Positions 31,029 through 43,633 of a DNA stretch of 64,000 bases are shown piece after piece. Under the pieces are notes generated by a model, which saw nothing but the letters and a program-made list of their open reading frames with translations, was not told where the DNA came from and ran no database searches. Made by a program: the position numbers and the translations under genes. Within the stretch, counting starts at the first letter, position 1. Each line of letters starts with the position of its first letter. The DNA comes from a virus. Lineage: Duplodnaviria; Caudoviricetes. The stretch lies in the IMG/VR virus record IMGVR_UViG_3300037067_015585, positions 32,001-96,000 of that record. One strand, given 5' to 3'.

Positions 31029-34000
31029 TTACGCCCAATTGTTTAATCTTGTGCTAAGTTTCGATGGCGACTCACCCATTTTTGGTAGGTATGTTTGTAG
31101 TAATGTTTTGATTACATCAACATTACTAGTACTACTATCACTGTTAATCTTTTCAACAGTGTCAGCGATCTCTTTCATTAATTCTGCGTTATAAGCGAGC
31201 AATGCCTCTAAATTACTCGCTGATGAACCAGACTTTTCTGTTTTAACTTGTATGGTAGAAATGGTTTCTGCCATAACTTTCTTTTTGTCTGGTTCCTCGA
31301 TGCCAGTAGAAACACCAAGTTTGCTAGATAATAATTCAAGTGCTGCGAATGACGTTTGTAATGTATCGACCTGATTCTTTATTTTGTTTTGCCCAGATTC
31401 AATAGCGGCAGCTACTCTGTTAGTTACATCATTGATAGTCGGAATTACATCTAATAATCCAATAAAAGCAGTTGTCATGTAATCTCGCAGTTGCGACATT
31501 ACAGACACAATTCCAGAAAATCCAGATGTAATACTAGATATTGCCCTATTTGATGTTAATTCCAATGCTCCGAACGCATCGATTAATGAGCTTGTGAACG
31601 ATATTAAAGATGACCCGATAGTTGATATGCTATTAATGTTGAACCTTGATATAGAATCTAATACACGTCCAAACAGCGTCAGCGACTGCCCTGCTATACT
31701 TGTTTTTGCTGGATCGATTTTATTTATTCCAGAAGATAATCCAATCATTTCAATGGAAAGCCTGTTGCCATAACCAGTGATTGCCGCAAGACCAGATATT
31801 TCACTTGTAGCATGACTAAATCTTGCTAATGATTGCCCAACAACATCCATCTTGTTTTGATCTATTTCGCTGACACCGGAAGACAATCCACGCATAGCCT
31901 TGGGAAAATCGACACCCCATCCCATCGACTCCATAAACGATTTTGTGCCAGGACCCAATGTAAGCAAAGCATTACTAAATTTTTGTAATCTACCATCGCT
32001 TAATTGACCAATACCATTTATTGCATCCCAGCTTATAAGAAACATTGCGGCAGTAAGAGCGGCCATGCCCGTACCAAGAGCGACTGCTGATATAGCCATT
32101 TCTGCACCGCCAACGCCTATTGACACAGCAGATTCACGTAGTGCATTACCAAATGTCAATAGTATTCCACTACTTAGTTTGGTCATCGTATCAATTGCTT
32201 CATCACTTATCAAAAACGTTGCGATACTGAGAGCAGCAAAAGCAACACCTAAAGCGATTGCAGATGCTATCATAACGGTAGCGCCTGCACCGATAGCAAC
32301 AGCTGCTACCATTAATTCAACACCAAAAACAGCTAATCCGGCACCTAGGGCTACCATCTCACCAAAATTCGCAGCACCAAGCAACTTGATAAAGCTATCA
32401 ACTGTGTGATCAAAAGCCCATGAAAGCATCAACACTGCAAAGCTGAGAGCTATAGCAGCAATACCAAGTGCTACCATAGCAGCGACACCAGGCCATCCAA
32501 CCATACCGAGCACAAAAGCAGCTGCTGCTATAGCTGCCAATCCAACAGCAATTTTTCCATATGACTCCCAACTAATTTTACCCATTTTTTCAAACGCAAA
32601 TGACATTAACAAAACTCCAGCACCAACAGCAACAGCAGCAACGGCAATAGCTAGCAATTTGCCTGCATCAGTAATCTTCATAAATAGCCGCCACAATCCT
32701 AATCCGATACTAAGCCCAACAAACGCCGCACCAACAGCGACTGCGCCAACAGCTACCACCATAAGTAAAGTACCAAATCCACTCAACACACCCCATAACT
32801 CTTCAAACCAGCTAACAACGGGGCTTACATTCTGACTTACATCTTTTAATGCATCTGATGCTTTGTTGGTCGCAGGTTTAAATCCAGATATCGCATTAAT
32901 AACAAAACTGATGGCGTCAATCAGTGGTACTAACGCATAATCTATAAGCCAATTGATAGCTGGTGCTATTCGGATCATCAAGTTACTAGTTGCTGCTTCT
33001 AATTTAGACCACATTTTAGTAAAGTGATCTGCTATAGATGATGTTGCTTCATTATACAAAAATGCTTTTAAAGTTTCTGGTCCGGCTTTCTTAGCATCTT
33101 CAAATGCTTTATCTCTAAGATCCTTCGACATTTTAGTCGCTAATGCTGTTATATCTGTTGCTGATTTGCCAAGTATATTTAAAGTCTTTCCACTGACATC
33201 CTTAACGCTATTTAACTCCATCAATGCCATATATCCTTGTCTATCAAATCCAAGCTGAGCAGCTTGGGCTTCCATTGCCATCAATCTTCGTTTTTCATTT
33301 GTTATATGTGAATTAGCCTCAGCATATTGTGCTACAACCGATCGTAAGTCAGCTTTTGCTTTATCAGCGGCCGACATCGTATCGTATCCTTCAGTCATCG
33401 CCCTTCCAACCCCTTCGATTCTTGATAACAAATTAGGATCAGAGAAATGTTTTGCCATGCCAGTAGTAAACTGATTGACTTGCTCTGTGCTCCATCCCAT
33501 TTTGTTGCCAAGACCAGTTAGCCCAACAGTATATTCATTCAATTCTCTAGTACCTGTCGCACCGAAAATAAACTTCATTTCTGCTGCAGACTTTGCTTGG
33601 CCGGATAATATCCTGCCCATTTGATCGGCTGATAGGCCAAGCTGACGCATCGATTCAGCATACTTTAGCAATATTGCTTCAGCATCTTTAATGCCCATGC
33701 TCTTCATTGCGCGTTGCCAGTCAGCTAGATCCTTCTGGTTGACGCCCAATATTTTGGAGAATTGAACATTAGTAGCGATCATAGAGCCCAATTGATCGTC
33801 TGTATCACGTATAGAAGCACCCAATATTGCCATTGCTTCCATAGCAGGTCTACGCATTAAGCCATATTTCGCAGTTAAAGTGTTAACCTGGCCTATTATT
33901 TCTTTTTGTTGCCCATAGAGACGATAATTAGCAGTATTAAATTTATTCTCTTCTTCAACAAATCCAGCAAAAGCCGTTTTGATGGCAGTTATGCCAACCA

Positions 34001-38054: not shown

Positions 38055-40103
38055 TTAAAATGCACAAACTAACTTGATCTCGGCTATGCTAGTAATAGAT
38101 CCACCATCGATATTAGCTGATATACTTAACCTGTAGTATCTATAACTCGTGTGATTTCCGAATGTAAAATATGGAGTCCAAGCATAATTCCCAGGAGCAG
38201 CTATATTACTTCTAAAATCTAATGGTACAAAATTAGAATTATCGTTAGAACCATATAATGCGAAATCTTTCGGGAAGCCGGTATAGGTAGCTTCTTGTAA
38301 TGCGTATCTCATTACAACGGCACCATAAGGACCAAAATCGTATTGTATCCAATGTGAAGATCCTGAACCGCTTACCCACGCAGCATTAGTTTGGTCGAAT
38401 GCTCTCCACGCTGGTCCGATAACGGTGGTTAAGCTGCATCCAATTCTATCAAGCATATTGTTGCCCATGTTTTGGGCATTTGCACATATAAACTGTGATC
38501 CGTTCCAATAACTTAAGTAATTGTCGCCAGGAGACGAATAATGCTCCATTGATGTCGATCCAGGCACAACTGTCGCACCAGCACCGAGTGCTATTTGCGC
38601 CACTATATTCATAGTTAGACTATCATAGTTCATCTCACCATCAGAAGGATTGCCGTCGTTTCCAATGATAGAAGAAGCACCAGGCAAGCCAGAATTCTTA
38701 CACAAAGCAAGAATTTCACCAGCGTGAGCAAAATACCTTGTTGAAGTTGTTGTCGATTCGCTATCTGCTGTAACTGCATAAGGCGATGGTGTAGTGTAAG
38801 ATGTCATTGCAGCTGTGCATGTTACAGTCGGCATCGGAGACATTGAAGGTGATTGTGATATTGCTTGCGATGGCGATAATGAAAAATGTGGCGACAGTGA
38901 TGGCGAACGCGATGGCGATGGCGACAATGATGGTGAGCGCGATGGCGATGGCGACAATGATCGCGACAACGACGGAGATAACGATATTGATGGTGATAAT
39001 GATATTGATGGCGATAGTGACGGCGATAGCGATGGCGACATTGATACCGATGGAGATATTGATACCGACGTCGATGGATAAGGTTCAGGAATAACAACAG
39101 GTGGCTCAGGTGATGGATATACCTTGCAATCTTCTATGAATTCTCCAAAATAAGTCAACTCTCTTGGGCATGTTGCAATAGCACTAAACCACATCTGTGC
39201 CACTACTGTATCTGTGTCATCGACGCCTTTAATTAGCCACAACCGCTGTGTCCCCCTTGGGTGGCCGCTAACATCAACAGATCCAGATGGTGAGAATCTA
39301 CCATAATAAACACCATTGCAGCCTGAGCAGCAGAGATCTCTACAATACAATTCAGTAGCAACGATACTAGATGAATCACTTAGCCACTCTAGGGTATATG
39401 GAACATCAGATCTAACAAACGGCGTTTTGTATCCAGAAGCACGCAAATACTGATAGCCAGGATTTGCTAAAGTAACAGTCAGCTTCTCAATATAAGTTGG
39501 TACAAATGGGTTATTATTGCCAAATTGTACATCTTGTGTGAGATACTCGCCCAGTGTGATAGTTGTCCCTGACGACCCAAGGACAAGACCACCACTCCAT
39601 ATGTCTCCATTTATCGGTATGTTGTTTCCAGAATATGTTAATGTGTGTGTATACCAAACAGCATACTGTGTAGTGAAAATCGTGTGATCTAGATCAACAT
39701 TAAACGGTTGTGAAATCCATTGATTAGTTTCAAGATTTGTGACAGTGATTGGATATGTAGTGGCAGCACTACTTAAAAAAGCACTATAATGATCAATATT
39801 TGGCCATCTACAAATGCGTAATAATGCCAACACAGAATTCAACGTATCTGCGTCATAAGCTACCGATATGTTATCCTGATTTAGTGATTGCTGTTCTCTC
39901 GCTATCCTTGACACTACGCCTTGTTTATCAGTGGTTAATAGACCGCCTACTGTAACATTACCCCACATGTTGATAAACGGTGTACCTGGAATCAATCCGG
40001 CATTCACAAAGCCAGTTAACATATATCTATTATCGAATGATATAGTATACTGTTTTATTGGAGTCGTTGTATTCGATGGTGAATTTGATGCCACAAATGC
40101 CAT
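38055..40103 (-). CDS. Putative fibre/adhesin: Ser-Pro linker plus discoidin (F5/8C-like) domain carrying one A+B insert
   Basis: AWRAFD...W...WIQYDFG...FPKDF.L.GSND...YRYYRL...EI discoidin signature; TAATG-coupled to the upstream gene. Confidence 0.75.
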   Translation of the reverse strand: MAFVASNSPSNTTTPIKQYTISFDNRYMLTGFVNAGLIPGTPFINMWGNVTVGGLLTTDKQGVVSRIAREQQSLNQDNISVAYDADTLNSVLALLRICRWPNIDHYSAFLSSAATTYPITVTNLETNQWISQPFNVDLDHTIFTTQYAVWYTHTLTYSGNNIPINGDIWSGGLVLGSSGTTITLGEYLTQDVQFGNNNPFVPTYIEKLTVTLANPGYQYLRASGYKTPFVRSDVPYTLEWLSDSSSIVATELYCRDLCCSGCNGVYYGRFSPSGSVDVSGHPRGTQRLWLIKGVDDTDTVVAQMWFSAIATCPRELTYFGEFIEDCKVYPSPEPPVVIPEPYPSTSVSISPSVSMSPSLSPSLSPSISLSPSISLSPSLSRSLSPSPSRSPSLSPSPSRSPSLSPHFSLSPSQAISQSPSMSPMPTVTCTAAMTSYTTPSPYAVTADSESTTTSTRYFAHAGEILALCKNSGLPGASSIIGNDGNPSDGEMNYDSLTMNIVAQIALGAGATVVPGSTSMEHYSSPGDNYLSYWNGSQFICANAQNMGNNMLDRIGCSLTTVIGPAWRAFDQTNAAWVSGSGSSHWIQYDFGPYGAVVMRYALQEATYTGFPKDFALYGSNDNSNFVPLDFRSNIAAPGNYAWTPYFTFGNHTSYRYYRLSISANIDGGSITSIAEIKLVCAF
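38852..39072 (-). repeat. Low-complexity (Ser-Pro-Ser-X)n coding repeat
   Basis: SPSVSMSPSLSPSLSPSISLSPS... encoded by GATGGCGA-type repeats on the plus strand. Confidence 0.9.
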
Positions 40104-43100
40104 TATGATCCGCCTTGCAATACAGTAAACCAACAATAATATGGTGGTGTCGTTTGATAGCTGGCATTATCGGTTGCAACTATAGTGTAAGTGTGTAAAC
40201 CGGCAGCACGCTTACCAATATTAAAACTGAAGTCTACACCACCGATGTTTGTGTTAATTGTCGGACCAGTTGCGACTGCAACACTAACACCATCAATCCA
40301 CAATGATATAGCATAAACGCCTCTCCAATCATGTGCATTGCAGGTCAATAAGAGGTCTTGACTAGAATACAAAGTAGTTTGCGTTTGCCCTGCTGTCTTG
40401 AATTGTGCTGTTGTTCTTTCAATCGTATTATATTGAGTTATAACAACATTGCGAATCGTAGCATATGTGCTAGCAGTGATAACGCAATCTGTGGTTGATG
40501 CCGATATTGGCATCGCCAATTCACCATTTACAGCCGTAACGTATATTCTATAATAGCGATATAGAACACCATTTTTAAATGTAAGCCATTTTGACCAAGT
40601 GTTTACGCTAGGGGCATCGACATTAACCCTTGTATCGAGTGTAACCCATATATTATTGTCGTTCGATCCTTGAAATAGAAAATCTCTTGGGAAACCGGTA
40701 TCGCTATTATAGTTCTGCTCATTTATAACTGCACCGTTTACGACAGTCATACCACTATAATTCTGCTCTTGTATGGCATACTTATTGATCACTTTTGGTA
40801 GCGCGCTACCAAAATCATATTCAATGTACCATGGTGGTATAGCTACTGCACTTATCCATCTGTCACGCTCATTAAGATTCGTCCTATTAAACGCCTTCCA
40901 TGCTGAGTAAGTTACAGCGCGTGAAATTGAATAATATTCACTATTTGCACTAACAACATTTGGTGCTGGTGTATTGTCTGACGTCATTATCGCTGTACAA
41001 GTGGTTGTGCCAGGATTGTCAGCTCCATCAATCGATAAACAAACATATTTAATCTCCGCTACGCTTGCAACGCCACCTTCAGAACTGCCGCTAGCAGAAC
41101 CACTACCAATAAATTCAGTTATATTTAATCTATAATAACGATATTCTGTTCCGTTAATAAATGTGAAATATTGAGTCCAAGCATAATCGCCAGGAGCACG
41201 CACACCTATTCTTAAATCTAATGTTGTCCAATTTGTTTCGTCATTAGAACCGCACAAATTAAAATCTACCGGAAAGCCTACATCATTTGCCTCTTGTATG
41301 GCATATTTATTTATAACAACACCAACATTAAAATCATATTGTATCCAATGTATAGATCCTGGTCCACTTATCCATGCATTGTCTGTTCGATCAAAGGCGT
41401 ACCATGCTGGATTGAAATGATAAGAATTTTTGCATCCGACTGTAGAAATCGCCTTATTCCCCATCTTGTCGGCGTCATCACATTGAAATGATGTGCCGTC
41501 CCAATAACTTAAATAATACTCGATACCCGGCCTCATAACATCGAGCGTATTAATCATGTTATTGCCCATGCTTGCGGCCGTCACACATACAAACTGCGAT
41601 CCATCCCAATAACTTAAATAATGTGTTACACCTGGTTTTGATACTGTAATTGTGTTAATCATATTATTGCCAACACTGTCGGCAGTCACACATACAAATT
41701 TCGATCCGTCCCAATAACTCAAATAATGAGTGTCACCAGGTCTTGTTATAGTAATACCATCGATCATATTATTACCAAGATCTCTGGCATTCCCACATAT
41801 AAACTGTGATCCGTTCCAGTAGCTCAAATAATTATCACCAGGTGTAGTCCAATCCCCAGGTTTAACCCACGTATATGTAGCAGTTGGACCCAAAACTATC
41901 TGTGCAAACTTTAGACATGTTGCCGGATCATTTCTCATATCACCATCAGTGTCAGGGACAATATTTCCTGAACCAGGTAATCCAGAATTTATGCATATTC
42001 TAGTGATATTACCAGCGTAATCATAATATGCCGTAACTGGCGGATTTGGAGTATAGTATGCGCATGTTGATGCTGAGACTGAACCAGTAGATCCAAGTGC
42101 GATTTTAGCAATCTTATCTAACGTAGCACTATCACAACGCATTTGTCCACTTGACGTATTAATAGAACTTGCACCAGGAAGACCTGAATTAGCACATAGA
42201 GCTGTAATGGCACTAGGGTTATTGTATGTTAAACTGACTGGTGGCTCAGGTGTATAATATGCTTCTGTCACATTTGTAACGGATACGGTAGAGCCAAGTG
42301 ATATGAAAGCGGCTTTATTTATTGTCTCTGTATCATAATTCATCTGGCCATGTATACTATTGATTGACGAAGCACCAGGCAAACCAGAATTCTTACATAA
42401 AATTGTAATAGCATCGGGAGTCGAATATGATCTCAAATCTGGTGGCGAAGCAAAATTCTCTTCTGTTGCAGATATAACGGTCGCACCAGCACCTAAAGCT
42501 ATCACAGCTACTTCATTTAATGTTGTTGAATCATAATTCATCTGACCTTCGGACGTTTGAATTAACCATGTACCATTTATATCAGATCCGGCACATAAAT
42601 CTGTTACAGCCCCAGGAGTATAGAACCATTTTTCTAACCATGTGATAGCTTCACTGTCTGCACTAACAACATATGGCAATGGCGTAGTATTAGACGTCAT
42701 CTTGGCAGTACAAGCAGTAGTTGATGGATTATCTGCGCCATCGATTGAAAGATTGATAAGACTAATCTCACCAATAATAGTGCATGGATTGGGAAATATA
42801 TCGTTGATCGTAATTTCCGGTTGAGTGACATCCGACACTATTGTAGTGGGCTCTACATAAGTTGGTGCCTTTGTAGTAGTAGCAACTACCGTTGGTGTAA
42901 CCGGCATTGCACTTGTATCTGTACCCGGCAGCGGAAGACCATTGCCTGCAGCAACACCAGTAGCACCAGGAGTCTTATTGAACCGTATTGGCAATATTTC
43001 AGCCGCTGCGATTCTGTCTTTTATTATTCTGAAAACACATGATTGGTTATAGCAGCCTGGCGTATATGGGTGTACTGGTATGATTGCATCAATATTAACA

Positions 43101-43633
43101 AATACAAGACTGTCACGACTTGCTACAGTCGCTGCATATGTCGTCTCTGTTAAATCGTTGGTTGCTAAATTCCGATTATAAACTAAATAATTATTTAATG
43201 GGAAAATATTCTGTGCTGCGGCTACATCTTTAACAGTCGAAACGTTTGCTGGATTTACAAGATCTCGCTCAATTTTAATATCTGAAATATTGTATGCTTT
43301 AGTTGGTGAATTGTCTATTAAATTCTTACTCTGCAGATATTTTAACATCTGAGTAAGATCTTTATTATCAACTATGCCATCTCCATTCACATCGACATAT
43401 GGCTGATTTGATGGTCTGTTTTTGGGTAATGATCCAGTACCATGTGTAGTAATGTAGTTGGAAATAGTATTGTAGTCATTTATATCGACGACTCCATCAC
43501 CCAGTACATCAAATCTATTCCCTGGGTTCTGCCATCTAGATACACCTAATATTGTATTGCTTAGACTAAAGCTACTCACCAATGGAGTAACTTTAATTAC
43601 TTCGACATATGTTGTTAATCCTATTTGCGTCAT
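40103..43633 (-). CDS. Putative fibre/adhesin: dockerin + discoidin with nested AAAA-BBBB insert + discoidin + Ig-like domain
   Basis: WQNP...DVLGDG...DVNGDG dockerin, two discoidin signatures, 67-aa and 34-35-aa repeat arrays. Confidence 0.8.
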   Translation of the reverse strand: MTQIGLTTYVEVIKVTPLVSSFSLSNTILGVSRWQNPGNRFDVLGDGVVDINDYNTISNYITTHGTGSLPKNRPSNQPYVDVNGDGIVDNKDLTQMLKYLQSKNLIDNSPTKAYNISDIKIERDLVNPANVSTVKDVAAAQNIFPLNNYLVYNRNLATNDLTETTYAATVASRDSLVFVNIDAIIPVHPYTPGCYNQSCVFRIIKDRIAAAEILPIRFNKTPGATGVAAGNGLPLPGTDTSAMPVTPTVVATTTKAPTYVEPTTIVSDVTQPEITINDIFPNPCTIIGEISLINLSIDGADNPSTTACTAKMTSNTTPLPYVVSADSEAITWLEKWFYTPGAVTDLCAGSDINGTWLIQTSEGQMNYDSTTLNEVAVIALGAGATVISATEENFASPPDLRSYSTPDAITILCKNSGLPGASSINSIHGQMNYDTETINKAAFISLGSTVSVTNVTEAYYTPEPPVSLTYNNPSAITALCANSGLPGASSINTSSGQMRCDSATLDKIAKIALGSTGSVSASTCAYYTPNPPVTAYYDYAGNITRICINSGLPGSGNIVPDTDGDMRNDPATCLKFAQIVLGPTATYTWVKPGDWTTPGDNYLSYWNGSQFICGNARDLGNNMIDGITITRPGDTHYLSYWDGSKFVCVTADSVGNNMINTITVSKPGVTHYLSYWDGSQFVCVTAASMGNNMINTLDVMRPGIEYYLSYWDGTSFQCDDADKMGNKAISTVGCKNSYHFNPAWYAFDRTDNAWISGPGSIHWIQYDFNVGVVINKYAIQEANDVGFPVDFNLCGSNDETNWTTLDLRIGVRAPGDYAWTQYFTFINGTEYRYYRLNITEFIGSGSASGSSEGGVASVAEIKYVCLSIDGADNPGTTTCTAIMTSDNTPAPNVVSANSEYYSISRAVTYSAWKAFNRTNLNERDRWISAVAIPPWYIEYDFGSALPKVINKYAIQEQNYSGMTVVNGAVINEQNYNSDTGFPRDFLFQGSNDNNIWVTLDTRVNVDAPSVNTWSKWLTFKNGVLYRYYRIYVTAVNGELAMPISASTTDCVITASTYATIRNVVITQYNTIERTTAQFKTAGQTQTTLYSSQDLLLTCNAHDWRGVYAISLWIDGVSVAVATGPTINTNIGGVDFSFNIGKRAAGLHTYTIVATDNASYQTTPPYYCWFTVLQGGS
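41425..41836 (-). repeat. Four B units with a 102-105-nt period
   Basis: YLSYW(D/N)G..F.C..A...GN..I repeated four times; PG boundaries at about 41735, 41630 and 41525. Confidence 0.9.
41837..42640 (-). repeat. Four A units with a 201-nt period
   Basis: Unit-ending PP/PG codons at about 42440, 42239, 42038 and 41837; consensus C.NSGLPG...G.M..D...IALG. Confidence 0.9.

Follow-up and report, generated by a model that had tools for sequence, protein, structure and literature searches.

Within a 64,000-nucleotide stretch of the virus record IMGVR_UViG_3300037067_015585 (Duplodnaviria, Caudoviricetes; positions 32,001 to 96,000 of the record, hereafter the window), one gene encodes a 1176-amino-acid (aa) protein, P0001, whose first discoidin domain carries an insert of eight repeat units, four A units followed by four B units. 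A and B are the N- and C-terminal halves of one small domain, here called the AB module. The halves are very probably nested within a single chain like Russian dolls, with the topology A1[A2[A3[A4B4]B3]B2]B1 that an earlier note on this sequence had proposed. Three lines of evidence support this topology, namely a structural model, the mirror congruence of A and B units, and balanced unit counts across relatives.

Three related discoidin domains, two in P0001 and one in P0002, the product of the next gene downstream, share a frame in which CTA.MTS...(A/S)(D/N)SE precedes an insertion site and AW.AF follows it. The site holds a short loop in discoidin 2 of P0001 (aa 879–915, about nucleotides 40890–41000), one contiguous A+B module in P0002, and A1 to A4 followed by four B units in discoidin 1. 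In the latter, the frame reads CTAKMTS...ADSE at aa 308–329 and resumes with AWYAF at aa 743. The A units are about 66 aa long and have a cysteine at aa 347, 413, 480 and 547, corresponding to a period of 195–201 nucleotides (nt). The B units are 34–35 aa long, with YLSYW motifs at aa 602, 637, 672 and 707 and a period of 102–105 nt. A1 starts at position 42637 of the window and B1 ends at 41426, in agreement with the interval 41425–42640 given previously. The central junction is that of the single module, the sequence PGDNYLSYWNGSQFIC being common to B4 and the P0002 module, and the outer units match the ends of the single module (IALGAGATV in A1 and the single A, terminal GC in B1 and the single B). 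Similarity is highest between the middle units (A2/A3 61%, B3/B2 77–78% identity), and a conserved cysteine is present in every A and every B unit. The earlier note had read all of this from the letters, from the common frame and the contents of its site to the junction, the outer ends, the likeness of the middle units and the cysteines, and the translations agree with it on each count. Tandem Repeats Finder reported the B array alone (period 105), the A units having diverged too far in their DNA.

An exhaustive HMMER search with the single module against 1.84 billion representatives returned nine matches, and an indexed profile search returned ten. A contiguous AB domain of approximately 100 aa occurred in bacterial proteins (from Patescibacteria, Peribacteraceae metagenome-assembled genomes (MAGs) and others), either singly or in tandem as ABAB. 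Since A and B are contiguous in these proteins and in P0002, A+B constitutes one domain. A profile was built from contiguous AB domains, to which P0001 contributed only A4B4. In the phage genome it gave two full-length matches (A4B4 and the P0002 module, A0B0), three N-halves (A1–A3; E-values 5e-13 to 9e-9) and three C-halves (B3–B1; 9e-12 to 2e-8). The repeats are not due to chance, and the split pieces correspond to the N-terminal and C-terminal parts of a domain found uninterrupted elsewhere. No Pfam family covered the module, whether it was queried alone or as nine aligned modules, and a PDB sequence search with the AB profile gave nothing at E 10. An ESM Atlas feature search gave no usable match for the module, AB peptide-pattern scans of metagenome and genome contigs gave no relatives, and protein searches over 30–645 aa and 646–2058 aa gave no further nested arrays. 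AB is a new, rare domain family without a Pfam entry, common to phages and candidate-phyla bacteria.

The bacterial contiguous AB domains (P0011, P0012, P0013, P0014 and P0015) contain four conserved cysteines (KVC, SC, GRCGW, LTC) that are absent from the phage versions, and are followed by DNDGDG-type Cys/Asp-rich repeats. The phage versions have instead gained one cysteine in A and one in B. Both cysteines of this conserved pair are present in 10 of 11 phage modules, and the bacterial modules have neither. Use of the pair as a pairing marker was considered and dropped, as it cannot tell which A goes with which B.

Half-profiles of A and B were built as hidden Markov models (HMMs), and every relative found was scanned with them. 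The order of units was AAAABBBB in P0001, AABB in P0004, AB in P0017 and in P0002, and AB.AABB.AB in the extended frame of P0003. Equal numbers of A and B, which the earlier note had expected of nesting, were found in all seven phage arrays (five proteins on four contigs), a small sample, and each of the five proteins reads as a balanced nested word. Among the relatives found in these searches, the nested form is known from four viral contigs only. P0004 is an orthologue of P0001 on a 23.6-kb viral contig, with AABB in the equivalent discoidin loop; the protein is listed by NCBI under a Cloacimonetes MAG. P0017 is an orthologue of P0001 on a 16-kb viral contig. Upstream of its called start, the frame of P0003 (L011:2-4210) stays open as far as the contig end, and the called protein begins inside an A unit. 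Its AABB block lies not in a discoidin but in a DUF2341 domain, between the first strand YKYRRAITI and the next strand FPLLVRI. In the first AB module of P0003, a Gly/Ser loop of 20 residues sits precisely at the A|B junction, which indicates that the junction is a permissive loop.

The A and B units co-vary in mirror order. When the identity matrices of A and B units were compared, the nested pairing gave r = 0.63 and ranked second of 96 within-protein pairings, level with the pairing that exchanges the two near-identical middle units, against r = 0.15 for parallel pairing. The mirror congruence expected by the earlier note was thereby recovered, and subtypes defined by reciprocal best matches agreed for A and B. 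The outer subtype comprised A1/B1 of P0001 and A1/B1 of P0004. The two A1 units are orthologous (61–63% aa and 79% nt identity), and B1 of P0001 has its nearest relatives in B1 of P0004 and the B unit of P0017 (54–56%). The P0017 B unit was likewise closest to B1, and its A unit was closest to A2 (46%; 45% to A1 of P0004). The middle subtype, in which A ends with AYYTP.PP and B starts with PGD.HY, comprised levels 2 and 3 of P0001 and the outer level of P0003. The tip subtype, with the uninterrupted junction YSSPGDNY, comprised A4B4 of P0001, the inner levels of P0003 and P0004, and the P0002 module. A4 of P0001 is 70% identical to the inner A of P0003, whilst B4 is 83% identical to the inner B of P0003 and 67–69% identical to the P0002 module. 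The order of subtypes in P0001 is outer[middle[middle[tip]]]. With blastn, one collinear match of 552 nt (72% identity, E 5e-80) aligned A3-A4-B4-B3 of P0001 with the AABB inside the DUF2341 domain of the P0003 contig. It follows that the nested block, as one piece, either moved from one host domain to a different one or was retained in both.

Connector lengths point to the same pairing. In orthologues free of an insert, the loop ends that flank the single module are adjacent, so the N- and C-termini of the module should lie near each other. Since the connector between A4 and B4 is no longer than that of the single module, A4 would pair with B4. The end of A3 is the start of A4 and the start of B3 is the end of B4, at the same place; by induction, nesting would be the sole pairing that such short connectors leave within one chain. 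Parallel pairing, with A1 joined to B4, was rejected on the low correlation given above, on a connector too short to span three modules, and on the residue ranges of the fold search described below, which do not fit it.

AlphaFold2 was run on P0001:295-865 with a 16-row alignment, which was shallow and covered the inner levels better. The mean predicted local distance difference test (pLDDT) was 75 and the predicted template modelling score (pTM) 0.42. When pLDDT was averaged per unit from 10-residue blocks, both halves of each nested level were similar: approximately 57 (A) and 62 (B) at level 1, the outermost, 81 and 80 at level 2, 95 and 93 at level 3, and 94 and 94 at level 4, the innermost. 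A model of A3A4B4B3 (P0001:464-668) reached a pLDDT of 95.7 (at least 94 in each of the five models) and a pTM of 0.74. Each A in this model is beta-alpha-beta-alpha-beta and each B has three strands, and the connectors between levels are 5–6 residues long, outgoing and returning alike.

In an all-against-representatives fold search, the recurrent matches of the two-level model were scavenger receptor cysteine-rich (SRCR) domains (enteropeptidase, hepsin, TMPRSS2/13, CD5, CD6, CD163, factor I and LOXL2). These matches were weak (Z 2.4–4.0, 65–83 residues aligned, root-mean-square deviation (rmsd) 3–7 Å; about a dozen in the top 50) and fell into two classes. One covered model residues ~70–175, the contiguous A4B4. 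The other ran from residue 3 to 205 with only ~79 residues aligned, that is, A3 and B3 with the inner module skipped. The enteropeptidase SRCR domain (686–771) was in both classes, at residues 71–171 and at 3–205 with 79 residues. That a compact domain of 87 residues aligned from 3 to 205 at 3.8 Å rmsd indicates that A3 and B3 pack around the inner module. At level 3 alone, the split A3/B3 is modelled as a second copy of the A4B4 fold. An ESM Atlas cluster of 107-aa proteins matched residues 62–175, the inner module, with a template modelling (TM) score of 0.61, and Foldseek with the full model returned discoidin matches only. With the SRCR family profile, Pfam gave no match for any of the nine AB modules, even at E up to 10. 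In bacterial AB members, a helix motif like A.KVC.LAGY presumably resembles SRCR domains and serves as a lead only. The predicted fold of the AB module is SRCR-like at best.

We also modelled A3 (aa 466–532) and B3 (aa 632–668) as separate chains, with the inner module omitted. The interaction prediction score from aligned errors (ipSAE) was 0.51 in three runs, compared with 0.01 for the best of three controls; the partner pLDDT was 71 and the contact agreement at least 94%. Of 80 solved complexes, 58 attained the mark used for this test, as did 2 of 110 mismatched pairs, and scores of 0.60 or below comprised seven of the 80 solved complexes and both mismatches. Given the high homology prior, the result mildly supports pairing of A3 with B3, and it is not specific to B3 among the B units.

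Several observations weigh against within-chain nesting. The better alignment coverage of the inner levels could by itself yield the mirror-symmetric confidence pattern, and the outermost level and the first discoidin strand were poorly modelled (pLDDT 30–65). The earlier note had predicted four stacked copies of the module fold with antidiagonal contacts between A and B. For levels 3 and 4 the model agrees with this (pLDDT 95.7, SRCR alignment spanning A3 and B3), whereas levels 2 and 1 are of lower confidence (about 80 and about 60), and A–B contacts at all levels are suggested by alignment ranges and confidence values rather than read from a contact map. The SRCR matches do not exceed Z 4.0, a value that the fold search rates as that of a common arrangement, and Foldseek with the two-level model against PDB and BFVD returned nothing below E 0.1. 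The separate-chain prediction counts as weak support. The outer B of P0003 is without the cysteine although its A partner has one, so an A–B disulfide would not be universal. Both the mirror congruence and the collinear block would also follow from conserved gene order, so that these two are consistent with nesting and no independent proof of it.

The discoidin 1 loop differs widely among orthologues. The N-terminal 235 residues of P0001 have orthologues on 17 viral and 10 metagenome contigs, at 65–74% identity. In two of them (L015/L030 and L016) the loop is empty and its flanks are adjacent; one holds AB, one holds AABB, and AAAABBBB was found in the window only. In about 13 others the loop holds an unrelated domain of ~140 aa without a Pfam match (at ~aa 345–490 in L014, L017–L022, L024, L026, L027, L029 and L034). 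This domain contains cysteine and shows the motifs HLGQYVF, HWIGGDYEINW and CLQNGESDHTY. Given these states (empty, other domain, depth 1, 2 and 4), the loop is a swap site for alternative domains. The loop, which follows an ITASS-like strand, would correspond to 'spike 1' at the ligand-binding apex of factor VIII C2. On a 33-kb viral contig (L012:4474-5235), the orthologous frame stops at 254 aa, short of any discoidin, and may represent a truncated variant, a split gene or a frameshift.

The second tail protein shows a similar pattern. P0018 (L002:5633-8317), the P0002 orthologue on the depth-1 contig, has kept the N-terminal ~330 aa and a Ser-Pro linker. Its distal part is different and repeat-rich, without a Pfam match, discoidin or AB module, which looks like domain swapping in this gene too. 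With variable distal parts in both genes, the two proteins look like constant anchors with exchangeable distal modules, the usual layout of receptor-binding proteins. P0001 lies in a tail and baseplate module, with a conserved N-terminal part and a variable distal part, and judged from its sequence and setting it is probably a tail-associated protein of a large myovirus that serves adhesion or receptor binding.

The nested block is contiguous DNA, and therefore insertion of AB or AABB into the tip loop adds depth in one step and keeps the counts balanced. Plain tandem duplication would take two matched events to do so. Levels 2 and 3 are nearly identical in the A as well as in the B half, a pattern that fits self-insertion by the module that was innermost at that time. 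Synonymous sites are saturated, with proportions of differing sites (pS) of 0.64 for A2/A3 and 0.72 for B3/B2. Synonymous divergence therefore fails to date the duplication in A against that in B. Nonsynonymous divergence (dN; 0.44 for A2/A3, 0.16 for B3/B2) is well below the saturated synonymous divergence (dS), indicating that the units are kept by purifying selection.

These results led us to a model in which discoidin 1 would act as a scaffold, with the stack seated in the loop just after its first strand. The stack consists of four copies of an un-annotated alpha/beta domain of ~100 aa, each very probably placed in the Pro-rich A|B loop of the next-outer copy. The chain would run out through the four N-halves, turn in A4B4, the sole contiguous module, and return through the four C-halves, so that two short connectors would cross every joint between modules. 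Such a stack might form a stalk, fairly rigid and as long as its nesting depth dictates, at a rough estimate of ~3 nm per level, and might present the conserved tip module away from the discoidin. It would grow when a complete cassette, AB or AABB, inserts into the loop of the tip module. We put the stalk function and this mode of growth at somewhat under an even chance. The fuller proposal is more tentative still: a phage adhesion protein would adjust its reach through nesting depth, with a self-insertable cassette entering the tip loop singly or as a nested block, and the discoidin loop would swap tips.

Nesting could also be real and serve another end than spacing, with the levels as independent binding units for multivalent adhesion or with the stack blocking or replacing the binding site of the discoidin. 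Purifying selection on all levels fits such a role, as does the presence of a wholly different domain in the same loop of orthologues, which suggests that fold matters rather than length. On the other hand, the middle A units (dN 0.44) are more diverged than the tip units are between contigs, and the tip type common to P0001, P0002, P0003 and P0004 points to a special role of the tip. We regard this non-spacer role as rather unlikely.

Pairing of the halves between chains, giving an oligomeric, domain-swapped stalk, seems improbable. Tail fibres are commonly trimers, which together with the position of the gene in a tail module lends this possibility some weight, and A and B associated as separate chains in silico, with weak support. 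HABAS domains inserted recursively in RNA polymerase reportedly swap elements (PMC11515920). Within-chain pairing is nonetheless favoured by the two-level monomer model, which is already compact and very confident, by connector lengths equal to those of the contiguous module, and by the single module in its discoidin loop, where both ends are anchored a few residues apart.

It is very improbable that the insert is a rod of A units followed by a rod of B units, independent tandem-repeat regions with equal counts through coincidence or co-amplification: AAAA then BBBB does look like two ordinary arrays, each A has its own beta-alpha-beta-alpha-beta structure in the models and Tandem Repeats Finder sees the B array as a plain tandem repeat, but A and B are halves of one contiguous domain in all distant homologues, the counts are equal throughout the phage arrays, one solved domain aligns across A3 and B3 of the model, and the subtypes of A and B co-vary in mirror order.

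The record from which the window was taken is 234,376 bases long (linear class), with a CheckV completeness of 64%, and carries nearly all genes on the minus strand. PHROG matches around P0001 included tail sheath (window:47548-50403), tube, baseplate hub, hub/lysozyme and wedge proteins. With sheath, hub and wedge genes as neighbours, the region is the tail module of a large myovirus-like phage. P0001 consists of a dockerin, a linker region, discoidin 1 with the nested insert, discoidin 2 and a C-terminal domain. The dockerin type I-like domain (PF00404, E 3.7e-9, 37.1 bits against a curated cut-off of 22.9) was kept at the N-terminus in all orthologues. Pfam recognised two F5/8 type C domains, with a PF00754 (F5_F8_type_C) score of 49.6 bits against a curated cut-off of 28.2, and Foldseek matched the discoidin 1 model to CBM32 and factor VIII C domains with a probability of 1.0.

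P0002 consists of a conserved N-terminal part, a long Ser-Pro-rich linker and a single discoidin domain. The linker (SPSLSPS..., ~aa 357–416, window 38889-39068) is encoded by imperfect tandem repeats of 6, 12, 18 and 30 nt and might be a glycosylated or extended spacer. A linker of this type also precedes the first AB module of P0003 (L011) and is present in P0018 (L002). The TTG start listed for P0002 overlaps the end of P0001 (window 40103-40136), and the orthologue P0018 begins at residues matching an internal MAF... of P0002. The true start of P0002 is therefore probably an ATG ~11 codons downstream, at the P0001 stop.

Table 1. Features of the P0001 and P0002 genes in window coordinates; residue numbers refer to the respective protein.
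Feature	Position	Strand	Basis
P0001 gene, 1176-aa tail-module protein	40103..43633	-	Open reading frame and translation
Dockerin type I-like domain, aa 41–100	43334..43513	-	Pfam PF00404
Discoidin 1, first strand (CTAKMTSNTTPLPYVVSADSE...), upstream of insertion site	42638..42712	-	Frame common to discoidin 2 and the P0002 discoidin
A1, N-half of outermost module, aa 333–398	42440..42637	-	HMM half-match
A2, N-half of level-2 module, aa 399–465	42239..42439	-	HMM half-match
A3, N-half of level-3 module, aa 466–532	42038..42238	-	HMM half-match; pLDDT ~95
A4, N-half of innermost (tip) module, aa 533–597	41843..42037	-	Full-length profile match with B4
B4, C-half of innermost module, aa 598–631	41741..41842	-	Full-length profile match with A4
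B3, C-half of level-3 module, aa 632–666	41636..41740	-	HMM half-match, model and fold search
B2, C-half of level-2 module, aa 667–701	41531..41635	-	HMM half-match
B1, C-half of outermost module, aa 702–736, VGC at end	41426..41530	-	HMM half-match
Rest of discoidin 1, aa 737–865, AWYAF to closing Cys	41039..41425	-	Pfam match aa 737–844
Discoidin 2, aa 866–1037, short loop at equivalent site	40523..41038	-	Pfam and frame
P0002 gene, 693 aa, next downstream of P0001	38055-40136	-	Open reading frame and translation
A0B0, single contiguous module in P0002 discoidin, aa 466–571	38424..38741	-	Full-length profile match, E 3e-42

If the full proposal holds, host-range change would have a general and evolvable plug-in mechanism, and the design of rigid rods of set length a natural template. 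A single discoidin loop would be a modular display site in tail proteins from one group of uncultured jumbo phages. Nesting would also constrain folding, as an outer level can close only after the inner levels have been made, and protein designers could derive from it rods with a pair of connectors at each joint and a length given by copy number. The linear order, the close orthologues of different depth and a nested block that has apparently moved between two host domains would together make a tractable system for studying the origin, folding and use of such architectures. The putative stalk would be a rare but not unprecedented route to adjustable length.

In fold, the only recurrent likeness of the AB module is to SRCR domains; the two differ in that the matches stay at Z 2.4–4.0 with no Pfam SRCR match at E 10 and no PDB sequence match. 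The host domain in P0001 is a bona fide member of the discoidin/F5_F8_type_C/CBM32 group. Apical loops are the usual ligand-binding, variable elements of discoidins, and an insert of 400 aa and four domains in the first apical loop is far beyond the usual loop variation. In function, the nearest analogue of the AB stack is the A-V-P stalk of streptococcal antigen I/II, in which N-terminal and C-terminal repeats pair and lift a binding domain (PMC7732690). Both would have an out-and-back chain, but antigen I/II pairs an alpha-helix with a polyproline helix rather than halves of globular domains, and there is no homology.

To our knowledge, homotypic nested insertion has so far been described essentially for Si3 of RNA polymerase. 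The earlier note did not recognise the architecture, yet a precedent exists: HABAS/SBHM (sandwich-barrel hybrid motif) domains are recursively inserted into one another in Si3 of the cyanobacterial RNA polymerase beta' subunit, with up to six nesting levels, nine extra HABAS domains and a depth that differs between lineages (PMC11515920, PMC13114784). In a 2026 survey of 48,551 insertion events, Si3 was singled out as six-level nested, and most insertions were single-level (PMC13114784). That a domain can be inserted repeatedly into others of its own kind is thus already known, and the AB stack is no new principle. Like Si3, it has copies of one family inserted into copies, several levels deep. 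It differs in fold and family, and lies in a phage tail-module protein rather than a cellular enzyme. Whereas Si3 branches, with some hosts carrying several inserts, and swaps elements, the AB stack is strictly linear (A^nB^n). Unlike Si3, it also has close orthologues at depth 0, 1, 2 and 4 and a cassette that alternates with an unrelated domain at the same site. With its linear order and this series of depths, the AB stack would be a second, independent and cleaner example of homotypic nesting.

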